Origin: a bacterium
GTDB taxonomy: Bacteria; Myxococcota_A; Bradymonadia; REDH01
Assembly (NCBI GenBank): GCA_030427825.1
Contig: JAUICO010000008.1
Span: 513 to 64,512, forward strand
DNA length: 64,000 nt
Reading direction: 5' to 3'
Below, in pieces: positions 2,672 through 62,148 of the stretch. Both the position numbers and the translations under genes were made by a program. The stretch's first letter is position 1, and every line of letters starts with the position of its first letter. The notes below the pieces were generated by a model that worked only from the letters and a program-made list of their open reading frames with translations, had not been told where the DNA came from and made no database searches.

Positions 2672-2704
2672 GATCAGCCGGCGCCCCGCAGAGCCTCGAC
2701 CCTG

Positions 2705-7549: not shown

Positions 7550-7747
7550 GATTGTCTCACTGGCTGATGTCAGCGGCGGCTGCACGCAAAGCCGACAGCG
7601 CAAAAATGCCGGCTGTCTGGGCAATACTCGCCGCGCAGGTCCGTCGGAGGAGTCTGCCGATCACCTAACCATGAATCCTCTCACGGTGCCAACGACGCCG
7701 CCTCAGACGGTACCTGCACCGCTGCTGGAATGCAGCTCGATGTCGGC

Positions 7748-43110: not shown

Positions 43111-45666
<2,556 letters not shown>

Positions 45667-46835: not shown

Positions 46836-48038
46836 ATGGAGCGCGGAATCCAGGCAAAGCGAGAAAGCGCCAGTGCAGAGACTGGAAGTGAATTCGGTAT
46901 CGTGGATGTATTTTCGGGGTGCGGTGGGATGACCTGCGGCTTCCTGCAGGCCGGTGGCTTTGAGAGTAGATGGGCCATCGATTACGAGCCGGACATGATC
47001 GCGACGTATCGCTCCAACTTCGACCAAAAAGGCGAGCACACGACTGTCGGCGACGTACGCGAGTGGTTTGCTAGTAGTTCGACCGATATGCCTAAGGCTG
47101 AGGTTGTCGTTGGCGGGCCACCTTGTCAGGGGTTTTCGCTGCTAAACAAGAACCGACGACAGGACTCACGCCGCGCTCTGTGGTGGTACATGGCTGCCAC
47201 CGCGAAGGCTTCCGGCGCCTCAGTTGTTGTGATCGAAAATGTACGTCAGCTGATTACTTCGCCAGAGTTTCCGCAAATCATCGAGGCGCTGCGTGAGATT
47301 GGGTTCAACAGTTTCTCAGCGGCGGTACTCTGCACTGCGGATTTCGGCGTTCCGCAGGTGCGACACCGAACCATTCTAATGGCCTCGCGCGTTGGGCCGA
47401 TTTCTCTTCCCAGACCATCACATTGTGATCCGGCTCGGCTCCACGAGATTGACTGTGCCGCAGAGTTGTCGCCCTGGCAGGATGTGCGGAGCGCGATTGG
47501 AGACCTTGGGGCTCCTGTCGGCACCCAGGTTCGTAACGAAGCGCCTCCGTTCGACCTGCATTTCGGACGCAACCCCACACAAAAAAGCAAAGATCGGTAT
47601 AGGGCAGTACCGCCAGGCGGAAATCGCTTCGACCTCCAACGAAATCGTCCGGACCTTACACCCGACTGCTGGGTTCGGAAGAAGAGCGGCGGCACTGATT
47701 TGTTTGGTCGGCTTTGGTGGGACAGACCGTCGGTCACGATAAGGACAGAATTCTTCAAGCCGGAGAAGGGACGTTATCTTCACCCGGTAGAGCACCGTCC
47801 AATCACTCATCGTGAAGGCGCAAGAATCCAGGGGTTTCCGGACGATTTCATCTTTCGCGGAAGCAAGATTCAAATCGCAAAGCAGATCGGAAATGCTGTG
47901 CCTCCTCCGCTTGGTCGTGCAATCGGCGAGGAGGTGCGTCGTTGCCTGCGTGGGGAATGCTCCCGGCAATACGTGGCGGACACCACCACACACTATGAAG
48001 TCGCTACAGGTCGGGCTCCGACGCTAGTCATCGCCTGA
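46836..48038 (+). CDS. DNA (cytosine-5)-methyltransferase
   Basis: Motif I DVFSGCGGMTCGF, IV GGPPCQGFS, VI ENV, VIII QVRHR, IX REGARIQGFPDDF, X QIGNAVPPPL. Visibly lower GC than the flanks. Confidence 0.9.
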   Translation: MERGIQAKRESASAETGSEFGIVDVFSGCGGMTCGFLQAGGFESRWAIDYEPDMIATYRSNFDQKGEHTTVGDVREWFASSSTDMPKAEVVVGGPPCQGFSLLNKNRRQDSRRALWWYMAATAKASGASVVVIENVRQLITSPEFPQIIEALREIGFNSFSAAVLCTADFGVPQVRHRTILMASRVGPISLPRPSHCDPARLHEIDCAAELSPWQDVRSAIGDLGAPVGTQVRNEAPPFDLHFGRNPTQKSKDRYRAVPPGGNRFDLQRNRPDLTPDCWVRKKSGGTDLFGRLWWDRPSVTIRTEFFKPEKGRYLHPVEHRPITHREGARIQGFPDDFIFRGSKIQIAKQIGNAVPPPLGRAIGEEVRRCLRGECSRQYVADTTTHYEVATGRAPTLVIA

Positions 48039-48040
48039 CA

Positions 48041-48985
48041 ATGGCGAGTCGGATTTCCTCGAGTCCGGAGGCGCTTCGCCGCGAGTTGATCACTCTCCTG
48101 GAGCGTCTCGAGGATACCCTTGAGTACGGTGAAATCCGCGAACAGGTACGGTTGATGCTGTCTGCTCGCGCGCTGCTGCGCACAATGGGGTCGTCTGTCA
48201 TTGACAGCTCAGAAGCCCGGTCGGCACGCGAACGCATTCTGGCTTACTTGAAAGCGAACGTCAGAACTCCAGTTGCCGGCGATGAACTCGCAATGGTCGC
48301 GGGCATCTCGGAAAGGGCAAGACGGGTTCGCGAGCTTCGCAGCGAATTGGGATACGCAATTGTCACGGGGAGAACTGCCGTCGAGATGGCGCTGGAAGAT
48401 GACAGTCTCAAATCGATCCCCGGTATCGGTTCGGTCAAGGTGACTGACTACATTCTGCTTGAATCCGCGCCCGACACAGACGCGGCAACCCGCTGGACCC
48501 GCGCGAATACAATTCGGCGTAAGGACACGTCAGTGCGCTCGCGATTGCTTGAGTACCTGCGCACGTATGTAGGAACCCCGGTGTCGGGAGAGGAACTCAG
48601 GTATGTCGCGGATGGAGCCACTGAGTGGGCGAGCCGAGTACGCGAACTCCGCACCGAGCACGGCTGGCCGGTTGTCACCAGAACGACAGGCCGACCCAGC
48701 CTGGATGTTTGCGTCTACATGCTTGAGTCGGATCGACAGTTGCCGGAACACGATCGTCGAATCCCTGACACGATTCGAATCCAGGTGCTGGAACGCGACC
48801 GCTTCTCATGTACGGATTGTGGGTGGGGGGAATCATCGTGGCACAAGGCGGACCCTCGAAATCATCTTGAGCTGCACCACCTTACGAGCCACGCGGACGG
48901 TGGAGAGAACTCCGCCGAAAACCTCGTCGTACTCTGCAACGTGTGCCACGACCAACGGCACCGCAGCGATATCGACGCGCTCTAG
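48041..48985 (+). CDS. HNH endonuclease with duplicated N-terminal winged-helix-like modules (probable restriction partner)
   Basis: It starts 2 nt after the methyltransferase stop. HNH/Zn-ribbon region CTDCGW...HLELHHL...NLVVLCNVCHDQRH. Two related N-terminal modules: ILAYLKANVRTPVAGDELAMVAGISERARRVRELRSELGYAIVTG and LLEYLRTYVGTPVSGEELRYVADGATEWASRVRELRTEHGWPVVT. Confidence 0.85.
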   Translation: MASRISSSPEALRRELITLLERLEDTLEYGEIREQVRLMLSARALLRTMGSSVIDSSEARSARERILAYLKANVRTPVAGDELAMVAGISERARRVRELRSELGYAIVTGRTAVEMALEDDSLKSIPGIGSVKVTDYILLESAPDTDAATRWTRANTIRRKDTSVRSRLLEYLRTYVGTPVSGEELRYVADGATEWASRVRELRTEHGWPVVTRTTGRPSLDVCVYMLESDRQLPEHDRRIPDTIRIQVLERDRFSCTDCGWGESSWHKADPRNHLELHHLTSHADGGENSAENLVVLCNVCHDQRHRSDIDAL

Positions 48986-49136: not shown

Positions 49137-49179
49137 TTGCACGCCGCGATCCCCAGGTGATAGTTCCGCCCCGCGGAAC
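49137..49179 (+). promoter_or_regulatory. candidate sigma70-like promoter with overlapping inverted repeat (possible operator)
   Basis: TTGCAC (49137..49142), 16 nt, GATAGT (49159..49164). The inverted repeat GTTCCGC-ccc-GCGGAAC (49163..49179) overlaps the -10/+1 region. About 100 nt upstream of ATG 49280. Confidence 0.3.
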
Positions 49180-49279: not shown

Positions 49280-51064
49280 ATGCACTACGAATACCGAACG
49301 CTTGCCCAGTCCATTGTCGACTCAGCGGCGAGGTATCCCAACAACACGATGACCTTTCAGGACAGCTCCGGCGCTGAAACGAGCTACACCTATCCTGAGT
49401 TTGAGAAACGCACCGCAGAAGTAGCCGCCGGCATGCAGGCGCGCGGAATGAAGCAGGGGGACACGGTTGGACTCGTGATCATCGAGCCGGAAGATTTCGT
49501 GACCACCTTCATGGCTGCACAGCGTATCGGTGTGATTCCGGTGCCGCTGTACCCGCCGATGTCGATGGCGGATCTCGACGCCTATCTGGGCAAGCTCACC
49601 CGCATCGTTACAGATGCAGGGGCGACCGCGATGATCGTGTCCGATCGCCTGAAGCTGGTGCTCTTTCAGCTTGTCGACCGCGTCCCGTCCCTGAAGCGTA
49701 TCGAGATCGCATCGAAGCTGGCAAGCCCCGGAAAGACACCGGACTATCCGGTCGTCGAGCTCGACGACATCTCCTTCCTTCAATACACGTCCGGGTCGAC
49801 GTCGGACCCGAAAGGCGTAGTCGTCACCCACCGAAGCCTCAGCGCCAACGCGCAGGCAACCCTGTACGCAGGCCTGGAAGGCGGCGACTTCGACACGACC
49901 GTCAGCTGGCTGCCGTTGTACCACGACATGGGCCTCATCGGGTTCGTGATCATGCCGCTGATCGCCGGCATGAACGCGGTGTTCATCCCAACGATGCGCT
50001 TCCTAAAGCGACCGAATACGTGGATGGAGACGGTCAGCCGACACCGTGGGACCATCACGTTCTGCCCGCCCTTTGCGCTCGCGCTCGCTGCGCGTCGCGC
50101 GAAGTCGAAGCAGCTCGATAGCTGGGACCTTTCCTCGTTGCGCGTCGTTGGCGTCGGCGCGGAGCCGATCAACGCCGATGGTGTGCGACAGTTCACCGAC
50201 CTCTTTCATTCGCGCTGTAATCTGCCGAAGAACGCGGTCCTCTCGGCCTACGGCATGGCAGAAGCGACGCTCGCGATGTCGCTCAAGCGGGTCAACGAAC
50301 CGCTGAAGACCCGCTTCATCAATCATCAGACCTTCCAGGACGAAGGCATCGCCGTCGAGCGCACTCCCGGCAAAGAGGCGATCGAGCATGTCTCGTGCGG
50401 CGTCACGTTTCCCGGACACGAGGTCGCGGCGTTCACGGAACACGGCGTCGAATGCGCCGAAGGTGTCGAGGGCGAGCTTCGCTTTCGCGGCCCCTCGGTC
50501 GCTGCCGGATACCTCGGAAACGCAGAGGCCACGGCAGAGACCTTCCTCTCTGACGGTTGGCTGCGCACCGGCGATCTCGGCTACATTCATGAAGGTGAGA
50601 TCTACGTCACCGGGCGCATGAAGGACCTGATCATCGTCAACGGCCGGAACATTCATCCACAGGCCATCGAGTGGCCGCTCTACGAAATTGAGGGGGTACG
50701 CCGCGGCAACGTCGTAGCGTTCTCGCGTCCCGGCGACTCTACAGAAGAGCTGGTTATCGTCGTCGAGACCCGCGGAGAAGCACCTGAGGGCATGGTCAAC
50801 GCCATCCGCGAGTGCGTACAGACCGAGTTTGGTCTGGCCGTCGGCGACGTACGCGTGCTGCCGGCAGGCCACCTTCCCAAGACCTCATCCGGCAAGCTGC
50901 AGCGTCGACGTACGCGACAGCTCTACCTGTCGGGCCGCCTTGGCGTGGAAGGTTCACGCCAGATGGGGACCAACGCATCGAAGGTCTCACTTGCCCGTCA
51001 CGTCGCGCGCTCCATGTGGTCGCGCGTGAAGCAGGCAACACTCAGCCTGATGGTGTTTCGATAG
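49280..51064 (+). CDS. fatty acyl-AMP ligase (FAAL)
   Basis: ATG at 49280 preceded by GGGGGA. FLQYTSGSTSDPKGVVVTHRSL (FAAL-type A3 motif), YGMAEATLA, GDLGYIHEGEIYVTGRMKDLIIVNGRNIHPQ, LPKTSSGKLQRR. No C-terminal carrier domain. Confidence 0.85.
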   Translation: MHYEYRTLAQSIVDSAARYPNNTMTFQDSSGAETSYTYPEFEKRTAEVAAGMQARGMKQGDTVGLVIIEPEDFVTTFMAAQRIGVIPVPLYPPMSMADLDAYLGKLTRIVTDAGATAMIVSDRLKLVLFQLVDRVPSLKRIEIASKLASPGKTPDYPVVELDDISFLQYTSGSTSDPKGVVVTHRSLSANAQATLYAGLEGGDFDTTVSWLPLYHDMGLIGFVIMPLIAGMNAVFIPTMRFLKRPNTWMETVSRHRGTITFCPPFALALAARRAKSKQLDSWDLSSLRVVGVGAEPINADGVRQFTDLFHSRCNLPKNAVLSAYGMAEATLAMSLKRVNEPLKTRFINHQTFQDEGIAVERTPGKEAIEHVSCGVTFPGHEVAAFTEHGVECAEGVEGELRFRGPSVAAGYLGNAEATAETFLSDGWLRTGDLGYIHEGEIYVTGRMKDLIIVNGRNIHPQAIEWPLYEIEGVRRGNVVAFSRPGDSTEELVIVVETRGEAPEGMVNAIRECVQTEFGLAVGDVRVLPAGHLPKTSSGKLQRRRTRQLYLSGRLGVEGSRQMGTNASKVSLARHVARSMWSRVKQATLSLMVFR

Positions 51065-51275: not shown

Positions 51276-54200
51276 ATGACCCAGAACTCTGCCATTGCAA
51301 TCGTCGGAATGGCCTGCCGTTTCGCCGGCGCAGACTCCCTTCAAGAGTATTGGCGCATGTGTGTGGAGGGCCGAGACGGGTTCAGCTCGGTGCCGGCGGA
51401 CCGTTGGGATGCCGACGCGTTCTACTCGGAGAACAAGCGCTCCTTCGACAAGAGCTATGCACCTCGTGGCGGCTTCATTGAAGACGTTCGCAGTTTTCCT
51501 GCCGTCGAGCTGCAGATTCCGCCGCGACGCGTCGAGGTCATGGATCCGCAACAGCGCATGACCATCGAGCAGGGGTTGCTGGCCATTGAGGATGCCGGCT
51601 GTGGGATCGGCGATATGCCCCGACGCACCGGCGTGTTTGTCGGCGTTACGGCCACGGAGTGGAAGACGCTGATGTCTTCGCGAATCACCGCCCAGCTGAT
51701 GGCCAGCGGCGACTTCGGAGACGCCCCTGAAGACACCGAAGCGCTGGCCAGAGCGGTCAGCCGTGTGGTGCCGCCCAGAGCCTTCACCGCGCCCGGCGCC
51801 CTCGCGAACATGGCCGCCTGCTCGGTCGCTCAGGAGCTCAAGCTCGCAGGGCCCGCCTACACCGTCGACGCAGCATGCTCGTCTGCGCTCATCGCCGTCC
51901 ATGACGCTGTGGCTCAGCTGCGCGCCGGCCTCATAGACGCGGCCCTCGCCGGCGGTGTGTATATCTGCCTGACTCCGGAGCACCACATCGCCTTCTCCCG
52001 CATCGGCGCGATGAGTGCCTCCGGCTACTGCCGACCTTTCGACGCCCGCGCCGATGGCTTCGTACAGGGAGACGGATGCGGCATGCTCGTCCTCAAGCGT
52101 CTCGACGACGCGCTTGCACACGGCGACCGCATCTATGCAACCATCCGGGGCATCGCGGCAAACAATGACGCCGGCGAAGCGGGACCTATGGCCCCCGTGC
52201 AGGCAAGCCAGACCGCCGTCATCCGGGAAGCGTGGCAGGGCTCCGGATGCGACCCCGCACAGCTGGGTTACGTCGAGGCACACGGCACGGGAACCCTCGC
52301 CGGTGACAAAGCCGAGTTTGACGGTTTGGTGGCAGCGATTGGCGTTCAGGTGCGTGACGCAGCGCTCGGCTCGAGCAAAGCAAACATCGGGCACACCATG
52401 TCCGCCGCGGGGGTGGCGGGCGTTATTCGAGCCGCCCTTGCCCTGCATCACCAGACCGTACCGCCGATGGCGAGCTTCGAGCACGCGAAGAGCGACCTTG
52501 GAATCGACGCAAGCGGTTTTCGGATCCCCACCGCCGCCACCCCCTGGACCGAGACGGAGCGGCTCGCGTCGGTCAGCGCCTTTGGTTTCGGCGGCACCAA
52601 TGTGCACGTAGTCCTCTCCTGTGCCCCCGGTCTCGAATCGACGCAACAGCCCGCCGATCAGGCGGAGCTGGTCCTGATCTCGGGGCCGGATGAACCCGGA
52701 CTGCGCGCTCTGGCGGCGGCGACGGCAGACGCGATCGAATCGGACGCCGCGATCACAGTCGCCGCGGTGGCTCGCGCCTGGTCGACGCGCCGTCCACTGA
52801 GATGGCGTCTGGGTGTCGTCGCTGAATCCCGCGAGCAGCTCATCGAGCGCCTGCGCGCGGTCGCCGAAGACCGTCGTTGTGACGGTGTAGAGCTGCACGA
52901 GGCAAAGCGCTCGCCGAAGGTGGCGTTTCTCTATCCGGGCCAGGGCGCCCAACGCACCGGCATGATCGCCGGAATTCGCGACCGCTTTCCCGTTGTCGCC
53001 GACACCATCGCCAAACTCGAAGCAGCAGCCGATGGCAGGACGCGGCTTCCACTCAGCCACTACCTTTACCCAGAGCGCCGCGCGCAGTCGGTGTCCGACG
53101 ATGAAGCCACGGCGGAAATCACGGCCACTGAGAACTGCCAGCCGGTGCTCTACGCGGTCGCTGTCGCGCTCACGCGGCTGCTTTCGCAGGTGGGCGTAAG
53201 ACCGGCGATGGCCGCCGGACACAGCGTCGGAGAGTTTGCCGCGGCTGCCGCTGTTTCGCTTGTCAGCGACGAAGACGGGCAGCGCTTCGTGTGTGCTCGC
53301 GGTCGGGCGATGGGCGACATGCAGGGAGACAGGGGCGCGATGCTCGCAATCCGCGGCGGCGTCGATGTCGCCGAGCCGCTGTTGGTGGACGGCGCAATCA
53401 TCGCGAACGTGAACCACCCGACGCAGGTGGTTATCTCGGGACGAACGGAGGCCATCGACAGGGTGCAGGCGCGCGCCGAAGCCGCCGATGTGCGCGCCGT
53501 GCGCCTTGGAGTCAGCCACGGTTTTCACTCGGAAGTTTTTGACGGACTCGACCTCAGCGATGCGGTCGACGCTGTCTCGTTTCGCAGGGCAGATGCACCT
53601 GTGATCTCGTGCATCACGGGCGAGGCCTACGACAACGCTGAGCGGGGCCGCGACATATTCAACCGCCACGCAACATCCCCGGTCGACTTTGTTCAGACCT
53701 TGAACGCGTGCTCGGACGAAGGCGCAGACATCTTCCTTCAGGTCTCGGCCGGCGGGCCGGTGCTGACCTTTGCGAAGCGCACCCTCAAGGGCCGTAGCGA
53801 TGACATCGTATCACTCGCGACGAACCGCGATGACGACGGCGGCGCGTCGCTTCTCCAGGGACTCGCTGCATTGTGGACACGCGGCGTGGATATGGACCTG
53901 CGTGCGATCACGGCGGCGTCAGCTCCAGCCAGCCTGCCGCCATCCAGGCTGCCGCGCGAAGCCTACTGGTGCATACGAGCGGGCCAGGGTGTGGCCGCCG
54001 AGATCAGCGGCGCTTCGAGCGATCGGCACAGCGGCACGAGCCTCGGCGGTGGTGGCGAAAGCCCGGTCGAAGCGCCCACATCTGCGGCACCCGAAGGCGA
54101 CGGCAGAGTCGAGGCCGCCGTATATGGCGCGGTGTCCCGGGCAAGCGCATACCCGCTCGACTCGCTGCGCGGCGACATGCGTTTGATCGAGGACCTCGGC

Positions 54201-57200
54201 TTCGACTCGATGATGACCGCCGACCTCGTCGAGGAACTCACGCGGACAATTGACGGTGTCACCGCGATTCCGCGCGAGCTGCTGATGCGCAGCCCGACCC
54301 TGCAGGATATGGTCGATTTCTGCGAGTCGCCGGGCGAAACCACCGATCCCTCAGCGGACCACGAGCCGCTGCTTCGATACGTTCCGGACTGGCATCGCTC
54401 CGAGCTGACGGCACCGGGCTCCCTGCTCCACGGCGACTCCCATGTTTGGATTGCAGGGCCCAACGACATGCTTGCTTCAGTTGTGTCAACGACCCTGCAA
54501 TCGCTCGGTGCCACCACGGAACGGGTCGCCGGCGACGCGACTCTGAACAAATCGGCGTCACTCGTTGTGTGGTGCGAGACAGACGACATGCCCGCACCTG
54601 TTGCGACGATCGCTGGGGGCGACGACGGGCGGCTGCACGACGCCCGCGCGTTGATCGACGTTCTCGCCCGGGCGAAGAACGCCGGCTCGGAGCCGAGCCT
54701 CATCGTGTGTGCAAACATTGATGACGTGTGGGCAGAGGGCTGCGGCGGCGTTGCGCGCGCAATGTCAAAGGAGTGGCCGGACGCGTGTGCGCGGTTCCTG
54801 CGCTTTGAGCGAGGCCTCAGCGCCCGGGATCGAGCGCAGATCGTCGCGAACGAATGCAGCAGAGACGATCGCTCGACAGACGTCTTGTATCGGGACGGAC
54901 TTCGCTACGTTGCATCACAGCAGCTGCGCGAAGACCTCGCACCCTGGGCCGCCGCGGCAGACGACTGCGTGCTGATTACCGGCGGCACCCGTGGGATCGG
55001 ACTCAAGCTCGCTCGCAGGCTGGCGCCGAGCGGTGCGACCCTTCTGCTACTGAGTCGCAGCGAGGCCGAGGGCGAATGTGCGGAGTGGATCGCAAACACT
55101 CCTACGGTCCATCATGTGCGCGCTGACGTAACAGACCCGGGCGCCCTGCGTTCGGGCCTCGCCGGCTACCCCGCCGTCACCACACTCGTCCATGCCGCCG
55201 GTGTGCTCGCCGATGGCCCCGTCGAAAGCAGCGACGCAGAGCGCGGGCGCCTCGCGAGAGAGACCAAGGCCCGTGGCTGGGCCTGCGCCCTCGAAGCGTG
55301 CGGCCAAAGCTTGAAGCGCGCGCTCGTTGTCGGTTCGTGGGCGGGACGCTTCGGCAATCGGCATCAGAGTCACTACGCCTCCGCAAACGCGCTGGTCTCG
55401 GCGCTGACAACTGCAGCGCCCGACGGTGTGCAGGCGGCTTGCGCGGAATACGGCCCCTGGATCGACTCCGAGATGGCGGCGACGATTCCGACGGCGATCC
55501 GCGCCGCAATGCGAAACGATGGTGTGGACTTTGTAGGCGATGAGGCCGGCATCGACGCCCTGCTCCGTGATCTGAGCGCAGGCGGTGCGTCGATCCGCGG
55601 TCGTCGCATCCCGTCGAGTGGACGTCGCAAGACCACACACCAGAGGCTCGCGGTCGACACGCACCCCTTCCTCGCTGATCACGCGATCGGTGACGTTCCT
55701 GTGTTTCCGCTCGCATCGGCGGCAGATCTGTGCGCGCACGCCGCCGGCGTCGCGACCCCATTCGAGCTGGCCTCACTTGAGCTCTTTGATGGCATCCGGG
55801 TGACCCGCCCGGTCGAAGTCACCGCAGAAGCGACCAACGACCGGGTTGAGCTGAGCTCAGAGGGGGTGGTTCGCTATCGCGCGCGGGTTCCCGCCGCGCC
55901 GGGCGACCTGAACATCGAAGACCGTCTCATCGGGGGCGAGGCACCGTCGATGAGCCTCGATACGTTCTACTCCGATGTCACTTTTCATGGCCCGTTGCTC
56001 GCGGGTATCGTTTCTATCGACGGTATCGGCGACGACTTTGTACGCGGCAGGATCCGCACATCGAAGCCGGTGGACTGGATCCCCGGCAGCCACCGTTCAG
56101 CGTGGAGTATCGATCCGCTCGCGTTAGACAGCGCGTTTCAACTCGCCGCCTATGTTGCCTGGAACCGATACCAGCGCGCGGGTACGCCCGTGTCTCTGGA
56201 CCGCTATGTTCAGCTCAAGCCGATGCCTGAGGGCGAAGTGTACGCCGACGTTCGATTCGGCGAACGGGACGACGACCGGTTCAGAGCGGACATCACACTG
56301 CGCGACGAACAGGGAGACGTTGTGGCCGCGGTTCGCGGCGTGACAGCGGTCCTGAGCGTCGTTGAGGATGCGTCGGATAACGGCGAGACAGCCGTTTCGA
56401 AGGCGGATGCGGCCCCGGACCCCGGTACACAATACACGCCCCCCGCAGAGCATGTGGACCCGGACGAGTGGCCCGAAGTTCGCGACATTCAGATGAAGAC
56501 GATGGCGGTGAAGGCCTTCGGACTCAAGGACCCGTACTTCGACCTGCACGATGGCACGGCGCGCGACACCTCACTCGTCGGCGGCCGAGAAGTCATCAAT
56601 TTCTCTTCATACAATTATCTCGGCTACTCGGGAGACAGCCGCGTCATCGCGGATGTGGAAAAGGCGATTCATCAATTCGGCACCTCCGTCAGCGCGTCAC
56701 GCGTTGCGTCGGGCGAACGGCCGTTTCACCGCAACCTGGAGGCAGCGCTCGCCAAGGCAAACGACTGCGACGACGCGATCGTTTTTTCGGGAGGCCACGC
56801 GACAAACGTAAACGTAATCGGCCACCTGTTTGGTCCGAAAGACCTCATCCTGCACGATGAGCTGGTCCACGACTCCTGCCTCCAGGGGATCAAGCTATCG
56901 GGGGCTGCGCGACGCGGTTTTCGACACGACGACGTAGAGCATCTGGAGAGTCAGCTGCGCGAACTGCGGCCGCACTACGAGAAAGTGCTCATCGTCATCG
57001 AAGGTGTGTACTCGATGGACGGCGACATCTCGAACATACCCGGATACGTCGCCCTGCGCGCAAAGTACGGCGCGCTGCTCATGATCGACGAGGCACACTC
57101 TTTCGGCACAGTCGGCGCCACCGGCCTTGGTGTGCGTGAGCACTTCGGGCTTCGCGGATGTGATGCGGATATTTGGATGGGTACGATGTCGAAGTCCCTC

Positions 57201-57656
57201 GCATCGATGGGCGGCTGGGTCTCAGGCAAGGCGTCGCTCATCAAGTATCTGCGATACTCGGCGCCCGGCTTTGTCTTCGCGGCGGGAATCCCTCCCGCCC
57301 TCGGACAGGCCGCGCTCTCGTCACTCGAGCTGATGCTGCAGGAGCCGGAACGCGTTGTGACGCTGCAACACAACTGCGCATACTTCTTCAAAGAGCTGTC
57401 CTCGCACGGAATCAACACCGGCCCCGCGCTCGGAGAGTCCCCGGTCGTACCCGTCATTACCGGCGACTCGATGAAGGCGCTCAAGCTGTCCGAAATTCTG
57501 CTGGATCGCGGGATCAACGCGAAGCCGATCATCTACCCGGCGGTCGCCGAGGACGCCGCGCGGCTCCGCTTCTTCCTCTCATCCACACATTCTGAAGAGC
57601 AGCTCAAGCACACGGCCGCGATGATCGCGCAGATATTGAGCGAACTGAGCGAGTGA
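51276..57656 (+). CDS. type I polyketide synthase, KS-AT-ACP-KR-DH, fused to a C-terminal alpha-oxoamine synthase (SPT/AONS-like, PLP-dependent)
   Basis: One continuous 2126-aa ORF. Motifs: DAACSSAL, EAHGTGT, NIGHT (KS); GHSVGE, VSHGFHS (AT); LGFDSMM (ACP); ITGGTRGIG, HYASAN (KR); HPFLADHAIGDVPVFP, ALDSAFQ (DH); DEAHSFG, GTMSKSL (AOS). Confidence 0.9.
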   Translation: MTQNSAIAIVGMACRFAGADSLQEYWRMCVEGRDGFSSVPADRWDADAFYSENKRSFDKSYAPRGGFIEDVRSFPAVELQIPPRRVEVMDPQQRMTIEQGLLAIEDAGCGIGDMPRRTGVFVGVTATEWKTLMSSRITAQLMASGDFGDAPEDTEALARAVSRVVPPRAFTAPGALANMAACSVAQELKLAGPAYTVDAACSSALIAVHDAVAQLRAGLIDAALAGGVYICLTPEHHIAFSRIGAMSASGYCRPFDARADGFVQGDGCGMLVLKRLDDALAHGDRIYATIRGIAANNDAGEAGPMAPVQASQTAVIREAWQGSGCDPAQLGYVEAHGTGTLAGDKAEFDGLVAAIGVQVRDAALGSSKANIGHTMSAAGVAGVIRAALALHHQTVPPMASFEHAKSDLGIDASGFRIPTAATPWTETERLASVSAFGFGGTNVHVVLSCAPGLESTQQPADQAELVLISGPDEPGLRALAAATADAIESDAAITVAAVARAWSTRRPLRWRLGVVAESREQLIERLRAVAEDRRCDGVELHEAKRSPKVAFLYPGQGAQRTGMIAGIRDRFPVVADTIAKLEAAADGRTRLPLSHYLYPERRAQSVSDDEATAEITATENCQPVLYAVAVALTRLLSQVGVRPAMAAGHSVGEFAAAAAVSLVSDEDGQRFVCARGRAMGDMQGDRGAMLAIRGGVDVAEPLLVDGAIIANVNHPTQVVISGRTEAIDRVQARAEAADVRAVRLGVSHGFHSEVFDGLDLSDAVDAVSFRRADAPVISCITGEAYDNAERGRDIFNRHATSPVDFVQTLNACSDEGADIFLQVSAGGPVLTFAKRTLKGRSDDIVSLATNRDDDGGASLLQGLAALWTRGVDMDLRAITAASAPASLPPSRLPREAYWCIRAGQGVAAEISGASSDRHSGTSLGGGGESPVEAPTSAAPEGDGRVEAAVYGAVSRASAYPLDSLRGDMRLIEDLGFDSMMTADLVEELTRTIDGVTAIPRELLMRSPTLQDMVDFCESPGETTDPSADHEPLLRYVPDWHRSELTAPGSLLHGDSHVWIAGPNDMLASVVSTTLQSLGATTERVAGDATLNKSASLVVWCETDDMPAPVATIAGGDDGRLHDARALIDVLARAKNAGSEPSLIVCANIDDVWAEGCGGVARAMSKEWPDACARFLRFERGLSARDRAQIVANECSRDDRSTDVLYRDGLRYVASQQLREDLAPWAAAADDCVLITGGTRGIGLKLARRLAPSGATLLLLSRSEAEGECAEWIANTPTVHHVRADVTDPGALRSGLAGYPAVTTLVHAAGVLADGPVESSDAERGRLARETKARGWACALEACGQSLKRALVVGSWAGRFGNRHQSHYASANALVSALTTAAPDGVQAACAEYGPWIDSEMAATIPTAIRAAMRNDGVDFVGDEAGIDALLRDLSAGGASIRGRRIPSSGRRKTTHQRLAVDTHPFLADHAIGDVPVFPLASAADLCAHAAGVATPFELASLELFDGIRVTRPVEVTAEATNDRVELSSEGVVRYRARVPAAPGDLNIEDRLIGGEAPSMSLDTFYSDVTFHGPLLAGIVSIDGIGDDFVRGRIRTSKPVDWIPGSHRSAWSIDPLALDSAFQLAAYVAWNRYQRAGTPVSLDRYVQLKPMPEGEVYADVRFGERDDDRFRADITLRDEQGDVVAAVRGVTAVLSVVEDASDNGETAVSKADAAPDPGTQYTPPAEHVDPDEWPEVRDIQMKTMAVKAFGLKDPYFDLHDGTARDTSLVGGREVINFSSYNYLGYSGDSRVIADVEKAIHQFGTSVSASRVASGERPFHRNLEAALAKANDCDDAIVFSGGHATNVNVIGHLFGPKDLILHDELVHDSCLQGIKLSGAARRGFRHDDVEHLESQLRELRPHYEKVLIVIEGVYSMDGDISNIPGYVALRAKYGALLMIDEAHSFGTVGATGLGVREHFGLRGCDADIWMGTMSKSLASMGGWVSGKASLIKYLRYSAPGFVFAAGIPPALGQAALSSLELMLQEPERVVTLQHNCAYFFKELSSHGINTGPALGESPVVPVITGDSMKALKLSEILLDRGINAKPIIYPAVAEDAARLRFFLSSTHSEEQLKHTAAMIAQILSELSE
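51288..52610 (+). other. PKS domain: ketosynthase
   Basis: IAIVGMACRFAG; active-site Cys201 in VDAACSSAL (nt 51876..51878); His in EAHGTGT and NIGHT. Confidence 0.9.
52917..53795 (+). other. PKS domain: acyltransferase (malonyl-type predicted)
   Basis: FLYPGQGAQ, GHSVGE (Ser650), R675, and an HGFH variant of the HAFH malonyl signature. Confidence 0.8.
54108..54329 (+). other. PKS domain: acyl carrier protein (the only one)
   Basis: LIEDLGFDSMMTADLVEEL. Ser978 (nt 54207..54209) is the predicted phosphopantetheine site. Confidence 0.8.
54390..55595 (+). other. PKS domain: ketoreductase (structural plus catalytic subdomains)
   Basis: CVLITGGTRGIGLKLARRL, HAAGVLADG (LxD, B-type-like), K1331, S1354, Y1367 (HYASAN). 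Confidence 0.75.
55638..56360 (+). other. PKS domain: dehydratase (PS-DH hot-dog fold)
   Basis: HPFLADHAIGDVPVFPLA resembles HPLL...HxxxGxxxxP. Downstream IDPLALDSAFQLAAY resembles the DxxxQ motif. Confidence 0.65.
56493..57653 (+). other. PKS domain: alpha-oxoamine synthase (class II aminotransferase fold)
   Basis: INFSSYNYLGYSGD, FSGGHATN, DEAHSFGTVGATGLG, GTMSKSLASMGG (Lys1973, nt 57192..57194, as PLP lysine). Confidence 0.85.
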
Positions 57657-58462
57657 GAGTACTCTTCGCGGCGGCGTCTCCCGGTGACCTCGCAGGCGGC
57701 TCCTATGACGCTCAGCTGGCGCAGCTGCGCGAATCTGACCAACACCGGGCCGCCGACCTTCCCCGGGCCGCCTCACGGGAGAGCTTTGTGGCCTCGCGTC
57801 TGGTGCGCGACCGCCTCCTGCAGCAGCGCTGCGATTGGGACGGAACGCCATTGCTGCGATTGAAGGACGAGCGTCGTCTCTTTCGCACACGGGGTGGCGC
57901 CTGGGGCGTCGTGTCTCTGGCACACACGGATGGCATGGTTGCAGTGGCCGCGGCGGAGGGGATCGCGGTGGGCATCGACGTCGAAGCTGCGACGCGACCA
58001 TGCCGCTTTCGTGCGCTTTCACAGCGCTATTTCTCATCGCGGGAGGCGACGCGGATACGCGAATTGGACGATCAAAGCGGACACCGTGCCTTCATCGAGC
58101 TTTGGACACTCAAAGAGGCCTACGGAAAGGCGACCGGCGAAGGTGTGGCGATGGTTGCAGCGCACGCAGAGTTTGAGTGGCGTCCGGCTAACGTAACAAA
58201 CACGGCAGGCGGCGTGTATGGCGCCGTCGCTGTGCCGAAACACGCTGCGCCGAAACACGCTGCGCCGAAGCACGCTGTGCCGAAGCACGCTTCGCACGTC
58301 GTCACCACACAGCGACACCTGCGATTCCTGCGCAATGACGTCCCGCTCACGCAGTGGAGCTTCACGCAGCAACAACACGACGGCTTTGTCGTCGCGGTCG
58401 CCGCCGCCGCCCACGGAGTGCATTTCGAGTGTGTGGAAGTGTGGGCTCCGCATCCATTCTGA
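57653..58462 (+). CDS. 4'-phosphopantetheinyl transferase (Sfp-type)
   Basis: GTG at 57653 overlaps the PKS stop (GTGA). GIDVEAA and FIELWTLKEAYGKATGEG motifs. Confidence 0.85.
   Translation: MRVLFAAASPGDLAGGSYDAQLAQLRESDQHRAADLPRAASRESFVASRLVRDRLLQQRCDWDGTPLLRLKDERRLFRTRGGAWGVVSLAHTDGMVAVAAAEGIAVGIDVEAATRPCRFRALSQRYFSSREATRIRELDDQSGHRAFIELWTLKEAYGKATGEGVAMVAAHAEFEWRPANVTNTAGGVYGAVAVPKHAAPKHAAPKHAVPKHASHVVTTQRHLRFLRNDVPLTQWSFTQQQHDGFVVAVAAAAHGVHFECVEVWAPHPF
58231..58290 (+). repeat. 15-bp tandem repeat (4 copies) inside the PPTase gene
   Basis: tgtgccgaaacacgc, tgcgccgaaacacgc, tgcgccgaagcacgc, tgtgccgaagcacgc, encoding VPKHA APKHA APKHA VPKHA. Confidence 0.9.
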
Positions 58463-58489: not shown

Positions 58490-59173
58490 TCAGAGGGCTT
58501 CGCACTGCTCGTCGTCGCAGACGAGTCCATCGCCGCACACCAACACGCCTTCGCTGCAGCGCGCATCAGCGGGCAATCCGACGCACTGTTCATCGTCGCA
58601 GGTGCCGCCGAAGTCGGCGCAGTCCAACAGCGTTGGGCTCCCCACGTTGCAGCCCATTACGAGTCGCTCGCCGCGACAGGTGCCGATGTCCGATTCTTCG
58701 CAGGTACCCACATCAGATTCGCACGCATTGCCGTCGGCTTCGGACACACAGCCGGCTCCGGGGTCGGCGCAGAATGCAGTCACCGGGCGTTCATCGTCGA
58801 GGACAAAGAGACAGGTCTGCCCGGTCTCAACCGCGCATTCAAAGCCATAGTCTTCGCTGACTCGGACGCAGGCGCCGGGCACGCCAAAGTACGTCGCGCA
58901 GTCGCGGGATTGAATCACGCCGGCGACGCAGCGGCTGAGCACGCTTCCATCACAACGGCCGCGCGCGCTTGTGTTCGAGCAGCTGGCTGCGGCGTCAACG
59001 TCGTCGCTCACGTCCGCGCCGTCTCCGCTGCCTGTGTCCGTGTCGTCGTAGCAGCCGCACAGGCCCAGCATGCATACAAGCGCGATCGCGGCGGCCGGCA
59101 GGTCCCCGCGCCGGCGTATCCACGGCGTGTTTGTGTGCTCCGCACCGGCGTCGAGCCGCGTCGAACCGCTCAT
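58490..59173 (-). CDS. Cys-rich lipoprotein, hypothetical
   Basis: RRRGDLPAAAIALVCMLGLCGC lipobox, short acidic linker, and many Cys in the mature part. Its ATG overlaps the upstream gene's stop (ATGA at 59170..59173). Confidence 0.6.
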   Translation of the reverse strand: MSGSTRLDAGAEHTNTPWIRRRGDLPAAAIALVCMLGLCGCYDDTDTGSGDGADVSDDVDAAASCSNTSARGRCDGSVLSRCVAGVIQSRDCATYFGVPGACVRVSEDYGFECAVETGQTCLFVLDDERPVTAFCADPGAGCVSEADGNACESDVGTCEESDIGTCRGERLVMGCNVGSPTLLDCADFGGTCDDEQCVGLPADARCSEGVLVCGDGLVCDDEQCEAL

Positions 59174-60213
59174 GTGCGCAGATAGAATTTTTCGCCCATT
59201 CCAAACATACCGTCGAGGGAGACCCTGTCACCGCCCCCGGTCTGGACGTAACCGCTGAAGTACCCGAATGGCCCACGGTATCGGCTTTCAACGATGAGTG
59301 CGTTCAAATCAACTCGTCCATCGAGTTCGATAGTGAAGGTCGCGTCCACTCGACCCAGCTCATCACGAACGCGCCAGGTGGCGCCCACACCTTCGCCGTT
59401 TCGCTCGAACTTCACTGCGGGCAGCAGGTGCGGTTCCCCGTCGATCCACACACAGTTTTCGTTGTTCAGTGTGGGGTTGTTGCACTGGTTTCGGGTGAGA
59501 TTGAACGCGAACAGCTTTCCGTCTCTCCACTGAGCTCCGGTTACCCAATCCCACTCCATTACGTAGGGGTAGTAGCCCTTGTGGTCGTCTACCAGCAGGT
59601 AGGCCTCGCCGCGCGTCAGCGGTACGTTTTCGCCGTCAATCGACATCTCGCCTTCGACAGGCAGCGGTGACTTGTGGGAGTACATCCCCCGGTTTCCATC
59701 GAACGGCAGGCTGACGACCTGCGGCGTAACACCGTTCGCAAAAGCCAGGACACTGCCGCGAATCGAGGGCGTGTCCTTTGTCGCTTTGATGTCGATTTCA
59801 AAGCTGAGTCGATTGTCCGCGAGTCGGTTGATGAAGCGAACCGTGCAGTCGTTGCTCTCATACTCCGCGCGCGAACGTACCAGGTTGTCCGGGATGGTGA
59901 GCTTCCACGGCGCGACCTTGCGCTCGTACAGATACTTCTTTTTCGCGACGCGATCGTAGAGCTTCACCTGGACGAGGCCGACGCTCTGCGCGTTGAAGAG
60001 TGCGACGATCATGAACCAGCGTTTGTTGCCGACCTGTACCGCCTGCCATTCTTTGAGTCGCATCCTCCGCATTGCGCGTGGCCACTTCACCCGCCCGCCG
60101 ATCGCCGCGTCGATCAGGTTCACGGACGCGATGGGGCCATCGAAGGTTCCAAACTTCACGTTGCCACCCTGCACGAGTGCGTTGGGAGGCCTTTCGTAGG
60201 CGCGAGCTGTCAT
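59170..60213 (-). CDS. conserved hypothetical protein, possibly DUF2804-like
   Basis: 347-aa ORF with good coding character and beta-rich sequence (KFGTFDGPIASVNLIDA..., WRVRDELGRVDATFTIELDGR). The family assignment is from memory of size and sequence style only. Confidence 0.55.
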   Translation of the reverse strand: MTARAYERPPNALVQGGNVKFGTFDGPIASVNLIDAAIGGRVKWPRAMRRMRLKEWQAVQVGNKRWFMIVALFNAQSVGLVQVKLYDRVAKKKYLYERKVAPWKLTIPDNLVRSRAEYESNDCTVRFINRLADNRLSFEIDIKATKDTPSIRGSVLAFANGVTPQVVSLPFDGNRGMYSHKSPLPVEGEMSIDGENVPLTRGEAYLLVDDHKGYYPYVMEWDWVTGAQWRDGKLFAFNLTRNQCNNPTLNNENCVWIDGEPHLLPAVKFERNGEGVGATWRVRDELGRVDATFTIELDGRVDLNALIVESRYRGPFGYFSGYVQTGGGDRVSLDGMFGMGEKFYLRT

Positions 60214-60243
60214 CGGAGTTCCGGGTGTGCGGATGCGGGCATC

Positions 60244-61026
60244 CTACCAGTTGTCGCGGAGGCTGCGCAGGGTTCGAAAGCAGCGCTCGCCGGCATCCTC
60301 AACCGAATCGTCGCTGAGCTCAGAAAAGCGGCCGGCGATATGCTCCTGCAGCGACGGGTCCAGTGCACGGTGAAACGGGTTGTAGGCGCGCTCCTCATCC
60401 AGCGTCAGCAGAAAAGGGCCGTCTTCGCGACGGTGTCGGTCAGCGCGGGCCTTGAGCTCTGCGGCGCGTTCATTGCCGGGCTCCACGTGCAGACAGAACG
60501 CGAGGTTGTTCTGTGCGTAGTCGTGGCCCGGATAGAATCTTGCGCTGCCATCGAGGTCTGCGAGGCGGTGACAGACCGTGTTGTAGAGAATGCCGGGCTC
60601 GCCGCCGAATTTGCAGGTGCCGACGCCGCCAACGAAGTAAATATCGCCGCTGATATGGTGCTCGCCGTAGGACGCGATCACGTGACCATCGGTGTGACCG
60701 GGGGCCCACCGTATCGCGAGCTCGATACCGCCCAGCGTGAGACGGTCTCCGTCCGAGACGCCTTCGTCATGAGGTACCGCGAACATCTGAGCGTGGGTCG
60801 ATGCGATAACGCGGCAGTTGAGCGCGGCTTTCACCGCGTCGTTGCCGCCGGCGTGGTCCGGGTGGCCGTGTGTGGTAAAGATGCGGACCCGCCCGGGCGC
60901 GCGCGCGCGTACGAAATCGATCGCGGTCGCGGCGTCCACCGGGTCCACGATCAACGCGTCTCCGTCGTCCTCGACGTAGTACATGAAGTTGTCACTGATC
61001 GTAGACGCTATCGCTTCAACCTGCAT
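60244..61026 (-). CDS. gloB: hydroxyacylglutathione hydrolase (glyoxalase II)
   Basis: ATG at 61026 (MQVEAIASTISDNFMYYVEDDGDALIVDP...). THGHPDHAGGN, APGHTDGH, and a C-terminal NPF region. The ORF-track start at 61575 is a spurious extension. Confidence 0.85.
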   Translation of the reverse strand: MQVEAIASTISDNFMYYVEDDGDALIVDPVDAATAIDFVRARAPGRVRIFTTHGHPDHAGGNDAVKAALNCRVIASTHAQMFAVPHDEGVSDGDRLTLGGIELAIRWAPGHTDGHVIASYGEHHISGDIYFVGGVGTCKFGGEPGILYNTVCHRLADLDGSARFYPGHDYAQNNLAFCLHVEPGNERAAELKARADRHRREDGPFLLTLDEERAYNPFHRALDPSLQEHIAGRFSELSDDSVEDAGERCFRTLRSLRDNW

Positions 61027-61053
61027 GGCCGCTCCTCTTGTGCAGGTCCGGTC

Positions 61054-61080
61054 ATACACACTTTCCCTACGCGTGTGTAT
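61054..61080. promoter_or_regulatory. 8-bp perfect inverted repeat in the gloB / pseudouridine-synthase divergent region
   Basis: ATACACAC-n11-GTGTGTAT, flanked by outer GGTCCG (61045..61050) and CGGACC (61090..61095). Confidence 0.3.
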
Positions 61081-61125
61081 AGGGGCGGTCGGACCGAAAT
61101 GGGCGGCGAACAGGCTGAGAAACTC

Positions 61126-62148
61126 ATGGGGAGAAGAAAGAAGGCGCCGCTCAAGCGAGGCGGTTTTCGCACGCAGGTCGAAGTCACCGGCGGCATCATC
61201 GAAGAGGCGTACCCGGTGCACGAGATGTACAACGGGTGGCGCCTTGACCGCTTTCTCGTAGCGCGCCTCAACCGCAGCTCGCGCACGCAGGTCGCGCTCT
61301 TCATTCAAAGCGGCGTGTACTTTGATGACGGCCGAAAGGTGAAAGCAGGCACGCGAGTTCGCGAAGGAGACGTCGTGCGGGTTCGACGTCAGGAAAAGCA
61401 AACAGCTACGGCGACCAGCATCGACGGCGTCAGGGTACTTCACGAGGACCCATACATGATGGTCCTCGACAAGCCGGCCGGCATCCTGGTTCACCGGACG
61501 GCGCGCGAGCTCTCGAACACGGTCACTGCGTGGCTCGAACGAGAGTATCCCGGCGAGCGGATCGAGGCCGCGCACCGTATCGACCGTGAAACGTCAGGGT
61601 GCCTGGTGTGCGGTCGCGGCGTGGACGCGATCCGTGCGCTGCGTACCGCCTTTGCCGACAATCGCGTCGCAAAGACCTACCGCGCCGTGGTGGTGGATCC
61701 GGACCGCGTATGGTCTGTCGGCGACCGGGTGACGGAGGCTACGCCTCTGGGGCCCGACGCGACCTCGAGTGTGCGCTTGCGTATCGGCGCCGGCACGCTT
61801 CCCTGCGCCTCACACATTCACTGCCTCTCTCGCAACGGCGAGTACGCGCACCTTGAGATCGCCATCGATCAGGGTCGCCAGCACCAGATCCGGGCGCATC
61901 TCTTCATGCGCGGCACACCTATCGCAGGCGACAAGCTCTACGAGATGGGTGACGAGTACTTCGACAGCTGGTCCCTGGCGCCTGACGACCCGGCGCTTCT
62001 GTCTCAGCTCCGCTCCCAATCGCACTGCCTTCACGCCTTACGGGTTGTCGTTCCCGGCGCTGAAGGAGAGCTTCGTGTCAGCGCCGACCTGCCGCAGCGA
62101 ATCCTGGCTCTGTGCGCGGCGGATGCGGAAGGGGCAGGCGCAGGCTGA
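61126..62148 (+). CDS. RluA-family (RluD-like) pseudouridine synthase
   Basis: S4-like WRLDRFLVARLNRSSRTQVALFIQSGV, VLDKPAGILVH, HRIDRETSGCLV, KTYRAVV. An ATG at 61099 is an alternative start. The 59674 start in the ORF track is an artefact. Confidence 0.85.
   Translation: MGRRKKAPLKRGGFRTQVEVTGGIIEEAYPVHEMYNGWRLDRFLVARLNRSSRTQVALFIQSGVYFDDGRKVKAGTRVREGDVVRVRRQEKQTATATSIDGVRVLHEDPYMMVLDKPAGILVHRTARELSNTVTAWLEREYPGERIEAAHRIDRETSGCLVCGRGVDAIRALRTAFADNRVAKTYRAVVVDPDRVWSVGDRVTEATPLGPDATSSVRLRIGAGTLPCASHIHCLSRNGEYAHLEIAIDQGRQHQIRAHLFMRGTPIAGDKLYEMGDEYFDSWSLAPDDPALLSQLRSQSHCLHALRVVVPGAEGELRVSADLPQRILALCAADAEGAGAG

Follow-up and report, generated by a model that had tools for sequence, protein, structure and literature searches.

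A serine palmitoyltransferase-like domain fused to a one-module polyketide synthase in a Bradymonadia contig, part of a cassette that probably makes a sphingosine-like lipid base

A PLP-dependent domain fused to a polyketide synthase module

A 64,000-nucleotide stretch of a Bradymonadia genome (assembly GCA_030427825.1, contig JAUICO010000008.1, positions 513 to 64,512; the window, whose numbering is used throughout) encodes a type I polyketide synthase (PKS) that ends in a pyridoxal 5'-phosphate (PLP)-dependent domain. An initial annotation, made from the sequence alone, had found this domain closer to serine palmitoyltransferase (SPT) than to BioF and had suggested that it joins serine, or a close analogue, to a PKS-tethered acyl chain. 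The locus thus raises two questions: to which family of α-oxoamine synthases (AOS) does the domain belong, and what does it release from the module that it terminates?

The interval first assigned to the domain, 56493-57656 (+), translates to an open stretch of 387 residues with a terminal stop, which is not a separate gene and forms the C-terminus of an open reading frame (ORF) of 2126 residues. Since the Pfam match of the PLP domain has an E value of 3e-40, it is not a chance match. Homology to stand-alone AOS relatives starts at residue ~1723 (nucleotide 56442), and the start at 56493 is an internal Met (residue 1740), ~17 residues downstream of that onset. The ORF, like all features of the cassette, lies on the + strand and is laid out as follows.

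51276-57656 (+): type I PKS module fused to an AOS, in the order ketosynthase (KS), acyltransferase (AT), acyl carrier protein (ACP), ketoreductase (KR), dehydratase (DH), AOS; single ORF, 2126 aa
51288-52478 (+): KS, aa 5-401; Pfam ketoacyl-synt and Ketoacyl-synt_C
52926-53792 (+): AT of the malonyl type, aa 551-839; Pfam Acyl_transf_1
54126-54320 (+): ACP, the sole one, aa 951-1015, between AT and KR; Pfam PP-binding, E 1.3e-5
54969-55460 (+): KR, aa 1232-1395; Pfam KR
55617-56345 (+): PKS-type DH, aa 1448-1690, with no enoylreductase (ER) after it; Pfam PKS_DH_N and PS-DH
56442-57653 (+): SPT-like AOS domain, aa ~1723-2126; Pfam Aminotran_1_2 at residues 1772-2115, E 3e-40

The protein is a true fusion of a PKS module and a PLP domain, as first described, and the ORF contains no second ACP ahead of the AOS domain. 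An identical protein is on record (P0121), and at least 119 non-redundant full-length relatives of ~2100 aa, 49-58% identical, carry the same Pfam set. We consider it likely that the domain is an AOS of the PKS-coupled SPT lineage (SgaB type) and serves as the chain-releasing domain of a one-module PKS. The search for homologues of the AOS domain was decisive for this family assignment. The nearest sequences were Myxococcota fragments (60-78% identity), followed by a large family of stand-alone proteins of ~450 aa from Pseudomonas, Bordetella, Sulfuriferula and others (~54% identity). The search also provided the link to PfSgaB, the nearest characterized enzyme, with which the window domain shares 52% identity across 374 aa (E 7e-138); the PfSgaB sequence was machine-read from Fig. 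S6 of Peters et al. 2025 (PMC12134224), with a few letters lost. In Pseudomonas fluorescens MYb115, SgaAB makes sphinganines and phosphoglycerol sphingolipids (PMC12134224). PfSgaB is the AOS that partners the iterative type I PKS SgaA, and the purified enzyme shows an almost exclusive preference for L-serine relative to alanine and glycine, yielding 3-ketodihydrosphinganines (PMC12134224).

The phylogeny that had been proposed as a check agreed with this assignment. In a neighbor-joining (NJ) tree of 46 sequences (394 columns, 200 bootstraps), all PKS-linked AOS, the window domain included, formed one clade with 99% bootstrap support. Besides the fused proteins and the SgaB family, this clade holds a KR-AOS fragment and an ACP-AOS didomain protein. 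The main fused group (92%) stood beside the core SgaB group (89%), and the window domain fell outside the BioF (90%), KBL (100%) and ALAS (100%) clades. The deep nodes were weak (47-66%), with the PKS-linked clade on the side of SPT and LCB2. The tree comprised the window domain, 17 fused relatives, SgaB-like proteins and context-validated plasmid references, together with S. multivorum SPT, ThAOS and Arabidopsis LCB2a from the PDB; it is an NJ and not a maximum likelihood tree, and it does not include CqsA/LqsA, SxtA, Fum8, PigH/RedL or cysteate acyltransferase sequences. The reference families were checked against NCBIfam cut-offs, which Sphingomonas SPT, Ruegeria ALAS, Ralstonia KBL and E. 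coli BioF passed. The Mesorhizobium ALAS was accepted on its annotation and its pairing with Ruegeria ALAS (100% bootstrap); the Acinetobacter BioF scored below the cut-off but lies within a bio operon; and a Vibrio KBL-like sequence paired with Ralstonia KBL (100%). A Phocaeicola plasmid gene tried as a Bacteroidetes SPT reference failed the cut-off (388 vs 640) and was treated as unclassified. The ACP-AOS didomain protein (P0030, a complete protein of 588 aa at 156-1922 of L026, a Logan SRR7119511 contig) belongs to the same AOS clade, so fusion of this lineage to carrier proteins has taken more than one form.

Searched against PDB sequences, the domain matched S. multivorum SPT best (232 bits), then Thermus ThAOS (220 bits), plant and human LCB2, KBL, ALAS and E. 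coli BioF (131 bits), in this order; SphA (9pep) scored 97 bits and CqsA 73 bits. An AF2 model of the domain (pLDDT 90.1, pTM 0.88) likewise had S. multivorum SPT as its best PDB fold match (TM 0.92). Structure prediction, the second check that had been proposed, was nevertheless rejected as a family test, because SPT, ThAOS, KBL, BioF and ALAS all gave TM values of 0.86-0.92. Membership in the AOS superfamily (fold-type I PLP) is borne out by the Schiff-base Lys motif, the PLP-binding residues and the fold.

Active site and the amino acid substrate

The two motifs on which the initial annotation relied are both present in the PLP domain.

57087-57131 (+): DEAHSFGTVGATGLG, with Asp1938 (PLP N1) and His1941 (PLP O3'), then the SPT-type Ser1942
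57180-57215 (+): GTMSKSLASMGG, with Thr1970, Ser1972 and the Schiff-base Lys1973 (codon 57192-57194), then the SPT-type Ser1974

We evaluated the conservation of catalytic residues in an alignment of 120 fused proteins, to which the counts below refer. The D-E-A-H-S of DEAHSFGTVGATGLG was invariant (120/120), as were the T, S and K of GTMSKSLASMGG, and position 1974 was Ser in 119 proteins and Thr in one. The motifs were compared with those of four verified SPTs (S. multivorum SPT, Sphingomonas SPT, LCB2a and PfSgaB), a small sample that yields a correlation only. All four have Ser directly after the O3'-binding His, where BioF, KBL, ALAS and ThAOS have Gly or Ala; directly after the Schiff-base Lys, the four SPTs carry Ser or Thr and the other families Ala or Gly. 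The window domain has Ser at both places. The His-Ser and Ser-Lys-Ser contexts were therefore correctly described as SPT-like, and the reference motifs given in support of that claim were essentially right, since the alignment gave DEAHSMG and GTFSKSVG for Sphingomonas SPT, DDAHGTG and VTFGKGFG for E. coli BioF, and DDSHAVG (Vibrio KBL-like) and GTLGKALGG (Ralstonia) for KBL. A Shinella SgaB-like protein and a neighboring Streptomyces AOS, in or beside the PKS-linked clade, have His-Ala and not His-Ser.

Further signatures point the same way. SYNYLG is common to the window domain, LCB2a, Sphingomonas SPT and SgaB, the other AOS families having NN or ND in place of YN, and GTSVSASR is the same in the window domain and PfSgaB. 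SYNY, GTSVSASR and the catalytic Arg were invariant in the fused relatives. The catalytic set of the window domain consists of His1865, Ser1913, Asp1938, His1941, Thr1970, Lys1973 and Arg2098. In the T-x-S/G-K motif, Thr1970, Ser1972 and Lys1973 correspond to Thr241, Ser243 and Lys244 of S. multivorum SPT; His1865 (PLP-stacking and carboxylate-anchoring), Asp1938, His1941 and the C-terminal Arg2098 are aligned as well, and invariant in the relatives where checked. At 23 active-site positions taken from S. multivorum SPT structures (PMC10196870), the window domain shared 18 residues with PfSgaB, 18 with Sphingomonas SPT, 16 with S. multivorum SPT, 16 with LCB2a, 14 with ThAOS, 12 with KBL, 10 with ALAS and 10 with BioF. 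Residue 1841 (~56796-56798) is the His of a GHATNV motif found in all PKS-linked AOS, fused or SgaB-like, and its equivalent is Phe or Tyr in the other AOS families (Phe114 in S. multivorum SPT); to judge from the alignment, this His is a clade-specific active-site signature. Clade membership and the conserved pocket residues suggest that serine would be the amino acid substrate.

The PKS module, its cassette and the predicted product

The module retains its catalytic residues. Cys201, His336 and His373 of the KS were invariant (120/120), as were Ser650 in the GHSxG motif of the AT, its malonyl-type H[GA]FH motif (748-751), Ser978 in the LGFDS motif of the ACP (120/120), and His1469, Asp1618 and Gln1622 of the DH (120/120). 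In the KR, TGGTRGIG was nearly invariant, and Tyr1367, Asn1371 and L-A-D1313 were invariant or nearly so. No ER/ADH_zinc Pfam family was listed in the 120 relatives.

Two further genes complete the cassette.

49280-51064 (+): fatty acyl-AMP ligase (FAAL); Pfam AMP-binding, E 9.5e-67
57653-58462 (+): Sfp/HetI-type 4'-phosphopantetheinyl transferase (PPTase); Pfam ACPS, E 3.9e-15

The FAAL ORF opens with a GTG at 49157, its probable start being the Met at 49280, and in NCBIfam it best matches fatty acyl-AMP ligase subfamilies (NF006624, 474 bits) as well as FadD32-like models. The PPTase matched HetI, AcpT and AusB in NCBIfam, all below cut-off. Its GTG start overlaps the PKS stop by 4 bp (GTGA, 57653-57656); the two closest related loci, L021 and L022, have the same 4-bp overlap, and L006 has one of 1 bp, an arrangement that suggests coupled translation of the synthase and the enzyme that activates it. 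The stretch between FAAL and PKS contains no free ACP gene in any frame, and L021 and L022 lack one too.

The cassette recurs among the fused relatives, which come nearly all from metagenome-assembled genomes (MAGs) of uncultured bacteria labeled Myxococcota, Deltaproteobacteria or Bradymonadia. FAAL was directly upstream of the fused PKS in all nine related loci examined, and a PPTase followed the PKS in four of them (L021, L022, L006 and L024). L021 and L022 have the order Lactamase_B, FAAL, PKS-AOS, PPTase and share the chromosomal neighborhood of the window. A free ACP gene of 81-85 aa is added in L005, L006, L007, L023 and L024. L001 (53% identity) adds an acyl-ACP-desaturase-like gene, and L024 two membrane desaturases, a short-chain dehydrogenase/reductase (SDR) and a CMAS-like methyltransferase. 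In L023 (Bradymonadia MAG JBKAGE010000035, 1-26513), the FAAL-ACP-PKS/AOS cassette is located amid genes for glycosyltransferases, rml dTDP-sugar synthesis and a Wzx flippase, in a cluster that also encodes an MMPL transporter and a 3-beta-HSD-type reductase. This context hints at a glycosylated product, in parallel with the capsule-locus setting of SgaAB, and the accessory genes of the relatives fit a tailored lipid or glycolipid product. One apparent stand-alone AOS of 409 aa (P0006; L025, ERZ25039500 contig_49014, 2683-11230) was rejected as such, being the tail of a fused FAAL/PKS-AOS locus whose gene calls are broken into pieces by frameshifts or assembly errors.

Together, the three genes probably make a sphingosine-like lipid base. 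In the route that we propose, the PPTase would activate the ACP, and the FAAL would adenylate a fatty acid and load it onto the synthase, in the window subclade directly onto the sole ACP of the module and in the other relatives onto the small free ACP. The KS would receive the acyl chain and the AT would load malonate; a single decarboxylative extension, reduction by the KR and dehydration by the DH would then give a 2-enoyl-S-ACP, at which the chain would stop because there is no ER. The AOS, as a dimer, would form the external aldimine of PLP and L-serine, which would attack the thioester in a decarboxylative Claisen condensation and release a 2-amino-1-hydroxy-3-keto-4-ene long-chain base of the 3-ketosphingosine type. 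As the module has KR and DH domains without an ER, a 3-keto-4-ene base is predicted rather than the 3-ketosphinganine-like base that was first suggested; the rest of that suggestion, serine or an analogue condensed with a PKS-tethered chain, is supported by the tree and the relationship to PfSgaB, with serine itself as the presumed substrate. That a FAAL-primed single polypeptide builds the 4,5-double bond on the assembly line, and that the fused SPT-like domain condenses the 2-enoyl-ACP with serine, we put forward tentatively; the single extension round, the enoyl end state and any later fate of the 3-keto group are likewise predictions from the domain content.

Among known systems, SgaAB is the closest. 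Both AOS belong to one clade and have GTSVSASR, GHATNV, DEAHS and GT(L/M)SK(S/T) in common, and both would draw the acyl chain from the carrier protein of a type I PKS. However, the window AOS is fused and lacks the first ~48 residues of SgaB, which is a stand-alone protein of ~450 aa, and the window PKS is ER-less, FAAL-primed and ordered KS-AT-ACP-KR-DH, whereas SgaA-like PKSs are iterative and ordered KS-AT-DH-ER-KR-ACP. The KS-AT part is 30% identical to an SgaA-like PKS; thus, the AOS lineage is shared with SgaB and the PKS partner is a different recruit. A Pseudomonas protein 82% identical to PfSgaB (P0089) follows a 2500-aa PKS with the domains KS-AT-DH-ER-KR-ACP in a Kps-type capsule locus, and plasmid copies from Pseudomonas and Shinella have PKS and AOS in the same layout; these Pseudomonas and Shinella loci include capsule-type genes and an SgaC-like SDR. 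Neither a capsule locus nor an SgaC-like SDR was found beside the window cassette or in L021 and L022. SgaAB-homologous clusters occur predominantly in Burkholderia (PMC12134224). The Burkholderia homologues of SgaAB are presumably wcbR and wcbT of the CPS-I capsule locus; this predominance supports the identification indirectly, as do the extent of the CPS-I operon, which spans wcbT to manC, and the link of wcbR to capsule fatty acid synthesis. Neither the SgaAB paper nor its supplements mention myxobacteria by name (PMC12134224).

Canonical bacterial SPTs (S. paucimobilis, S. multivorum, Myxococcus, Stigmatella and Sorangium) share with the window domain the fold, the catalytic residues and the His-Ser and Ser-Lys-Ser contexts, and the FAAL and free ACP of the relatives mirror the dedicated AasR and AcpR. 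They differ in forming a separate clade, in being stand-alone enzymes that use acyl-CoA or acyl-AcpR, and in having no PKS extension step. The remark that myxobacteria are known sphingolipid producers proved beside the point here, as the canonical myxobacterial SPTs are stand-alone and Bacteroidetes-like (PMC9386255). Fungal Fum8 and SphA also join a polyketide chain to an amino acid to give a sphingoid-like base, but they are eukaryotic and their AOS is a separate protein, SphA giving the 97 bits mentioned above. In RedL and PigH/RedN of prodiginine synthesis and SxtA of saxitoxin synthesis, a C-terminal AOS off-loads a carrier-bound acyl chain onto an amino acid. Their substrates differ: glycine or serine, leading to pyrroles, and arginine. 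BioF, KBL, ALAS, CqsA and ThAOS share the fold-type I PLP scaffold and are structurally indistinguishable; BioF, KBL, ALAS and ThAOS are set apart by their clades and by the Gly or Ala that follows the catalytic His and Lys.

The remainder of the window encodes unrelated functions. Between the Lactamase_B gene and FAAL lie genes for a C5 cytosine DNA methyltransferase (46836-48038) and an HNH endonuclease (48041-48985), which are missing at the matching position in the syntenic L021 and L022 and have a GC content of 57-60% vs 63-67% in the flanks; 46836-48985 looks like an inserted restriction-modification module. Upstream of Lactamase_B, 43111-45666 encodes a protein of 851 aa that bears three putative copper-binding motifs of the MopE type and has no counterpart there in L021 and L022. 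A long + strand ORF (59674-62148) has a pseudouridine synthase domain at residues 595-743 only and overlaps minus-strand DUF2804 and HAGH-like ORFs (59170-60213 (-) region); its N-terminal two thirds are probably noncoding.

Alternatives and significance

Several points weigh against reading the fusion as a serine-using, sphingosine-type synthase. PfSgaB, 52% identical to the window domain, is the one clade member that has been assayed, and AOS enzymes can switch amino acid substrate at such a distance. No SPT is known to accept an α,β-unsaturated acyl thioester. The number of extension rounds is not readable from sequence, and loading of the ACP by FAAL is deduced in a subclade without the free ACP of the other relatives. 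Identity to canonical SPTs is 30-35%, and the NCBIfam SPT equivalogs of the CFB, Beta and Alpha groups gave 300 vs a cut-off of 640, 273 vs 500 and 219 vs 670, respectively. The His-Ser and Lys-Ser motifs are lineage signatures and not proven specificity determinants. Residue 2002 (~57279-57281) is Ala in the window and its nearest relatives, at a position where S. multivorum SPT has Ser273* of the partner subunit, which binds the PLP phosphate, and where PfSgaB and other fused relatives retain Ser. Finally, the cassette is not flanked by a gene for a 3-ketoreductase, ceramide synthase or glycosyltransferase. A search of the whole window for a 3-ketodihydrosphingosine (KDS) reductase or ceramide synthase met only unrelated SDR/epimerase genes 35-50 kb off, in agreement with the initial annotation, which had seen no free-standing Spt, ceramide synthase or reductase gene nearby.

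These points bear first on the amino acid. An enzyme of the same chemistry and clade could use alanine or glycine, giving 1-deoxy-type bases, or threonine, cysteate or another amino acid, and its product would be a sphingoid-like amino-ketone without the C1 hydroxyl or with a different head group. The S. multivorum SPT structure shows the hydroxyl of serine in contact not with the motif side chains but with the PLP phosphate and with waters that Asn52, the carbonyl of Ser243 and the amide of Gly80* keep in place (PMC10196870), so that sequence cannot settle the substrate. Moreover, serine specificity was measured in PfSgaB only, the window subclade differs from it at the pocket equivalents of positions 271, 273 and 274 of S. 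multivorum SPT, and cysteate acyltransferases, which have the same fold, are closely related to SPTs. We nonetheless regard another amino acid as unlikely, because the positions at which verified SPTs differ from AOS that use glycine or alanine (His-Ser, Lys-Ser, SYNYLG and GTSVSASR) are SPT-like in the window domain, agree with those of PfSgaB and are invariant or almost invariant among the 120 relatives.

A second alternative concerns the programming of the PKS, which might act iteratively to build a conjugated polyene, or might surrender a β-keto intermediate to the AOS as in RedL; in these cases a polyunsaturated amino-ketone or a pyrrole-type specialized metabolite would be released and not a membrane-type long-chain base. 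The order KS-AT-ACP-KR-DH is that of iterative synthases of the polyunsaturated fatty acid and enediyne types. The KR-DH part matches the C-terminus of PfaA weakly (69 bits; 508 for the whole PfaA model vs a cut-off of 1010), SgaA, the partner of the closest characterized AOS, is iterative, and no relative has an ER. Against this, the conservation of FAAL in every locus argues for a preformed fatty acid starter, and the best PDB matches of KS-AT are modular cis-AT PKSs (putative PKS 7zma, CurL, DEBS and MAS). A resemblance to enediyne PKSs, which the domain order followed by a PPTase had suggested, was rejected, as no enediyne synthase was among the 60 best KS-AT matches in the PDB. Interception of a β-keto intermediate is unlikely because KR and DH are catalytically intact. 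On balance, programming of either kind appears improbable.

The last alternative comes from profile matches. The best NCBIfam match of the window domain is bioF (TIGR00858; 330 bits vs a cut-off of 426), ahead of the two KBL models (294 vs 460 and 245 vs 493), ALAS (TIGR01821; 234 vs 338.55) and CqsA (NF005526; 150 vs 428), and the database names of the fused relatives are only "aminotransferase class I/II" or "BioF" ("8-amino-7-oxononanoate synthase"). As a control, Sphingomonas SPT cleared the SPT cut-off (833 vs 670). P0089, the orthologue of a verified SPT, gave the same subthreshold profile (bioF 341, KBL 306, SPT-CFB 298), so a top match to bioF says nothing on function in this clade, and assignment by NCBIfam equivalog, in which no cut-off was reached, was rejected as uninformative. 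An ordinary BioF, KBL or ALAS of biotin, threonine or heme metabolism, fused by chance or miscalled, is hardly conceivable given that the domain misses all curated cut-offs, is excluded from these clades by the tree, shares 10-12 of the 23 active-site positions with them, has no bio, tdh or hem gene context in the 64-kb window and is fused in at least 120 proteins.

Synthesis of sphingolipids from a PKS-derived chain in bacteria came to be recognized no earlier than 2025; the system then described consists of two proteins and occurs mainly in Burkholderia and Pseudomonas. The system in the window is probably a variant of it, in which an SgaB-type AOS lineage is joined to a different, ER-less and FAAL-primed PKS module and which is conserved in at least 120 protein clusters; we found no description of the fused, FAAL-primed, ER-less form in the literature searched. 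For annotation, bioF as the best hidden Markov model match is misleading for the whole PKS-linked AOS clade. If the route proposed here is correct, a wider set of bacteria would be expected to make sphingoid bases, and uncultured Myxococcota-type bacteria would possess a desaturase-independent, assembly-line route to unsaturated, 3-ketosphingosine-like lipids, encoded in a compact three-gene cassette amenable to expression and engineering. In some lineages, the product may be glycosylated or otherwise tailored, as the glycosyltransferase, Wzx and MMPL genes of the Bradymonadia locus L023 suggest.

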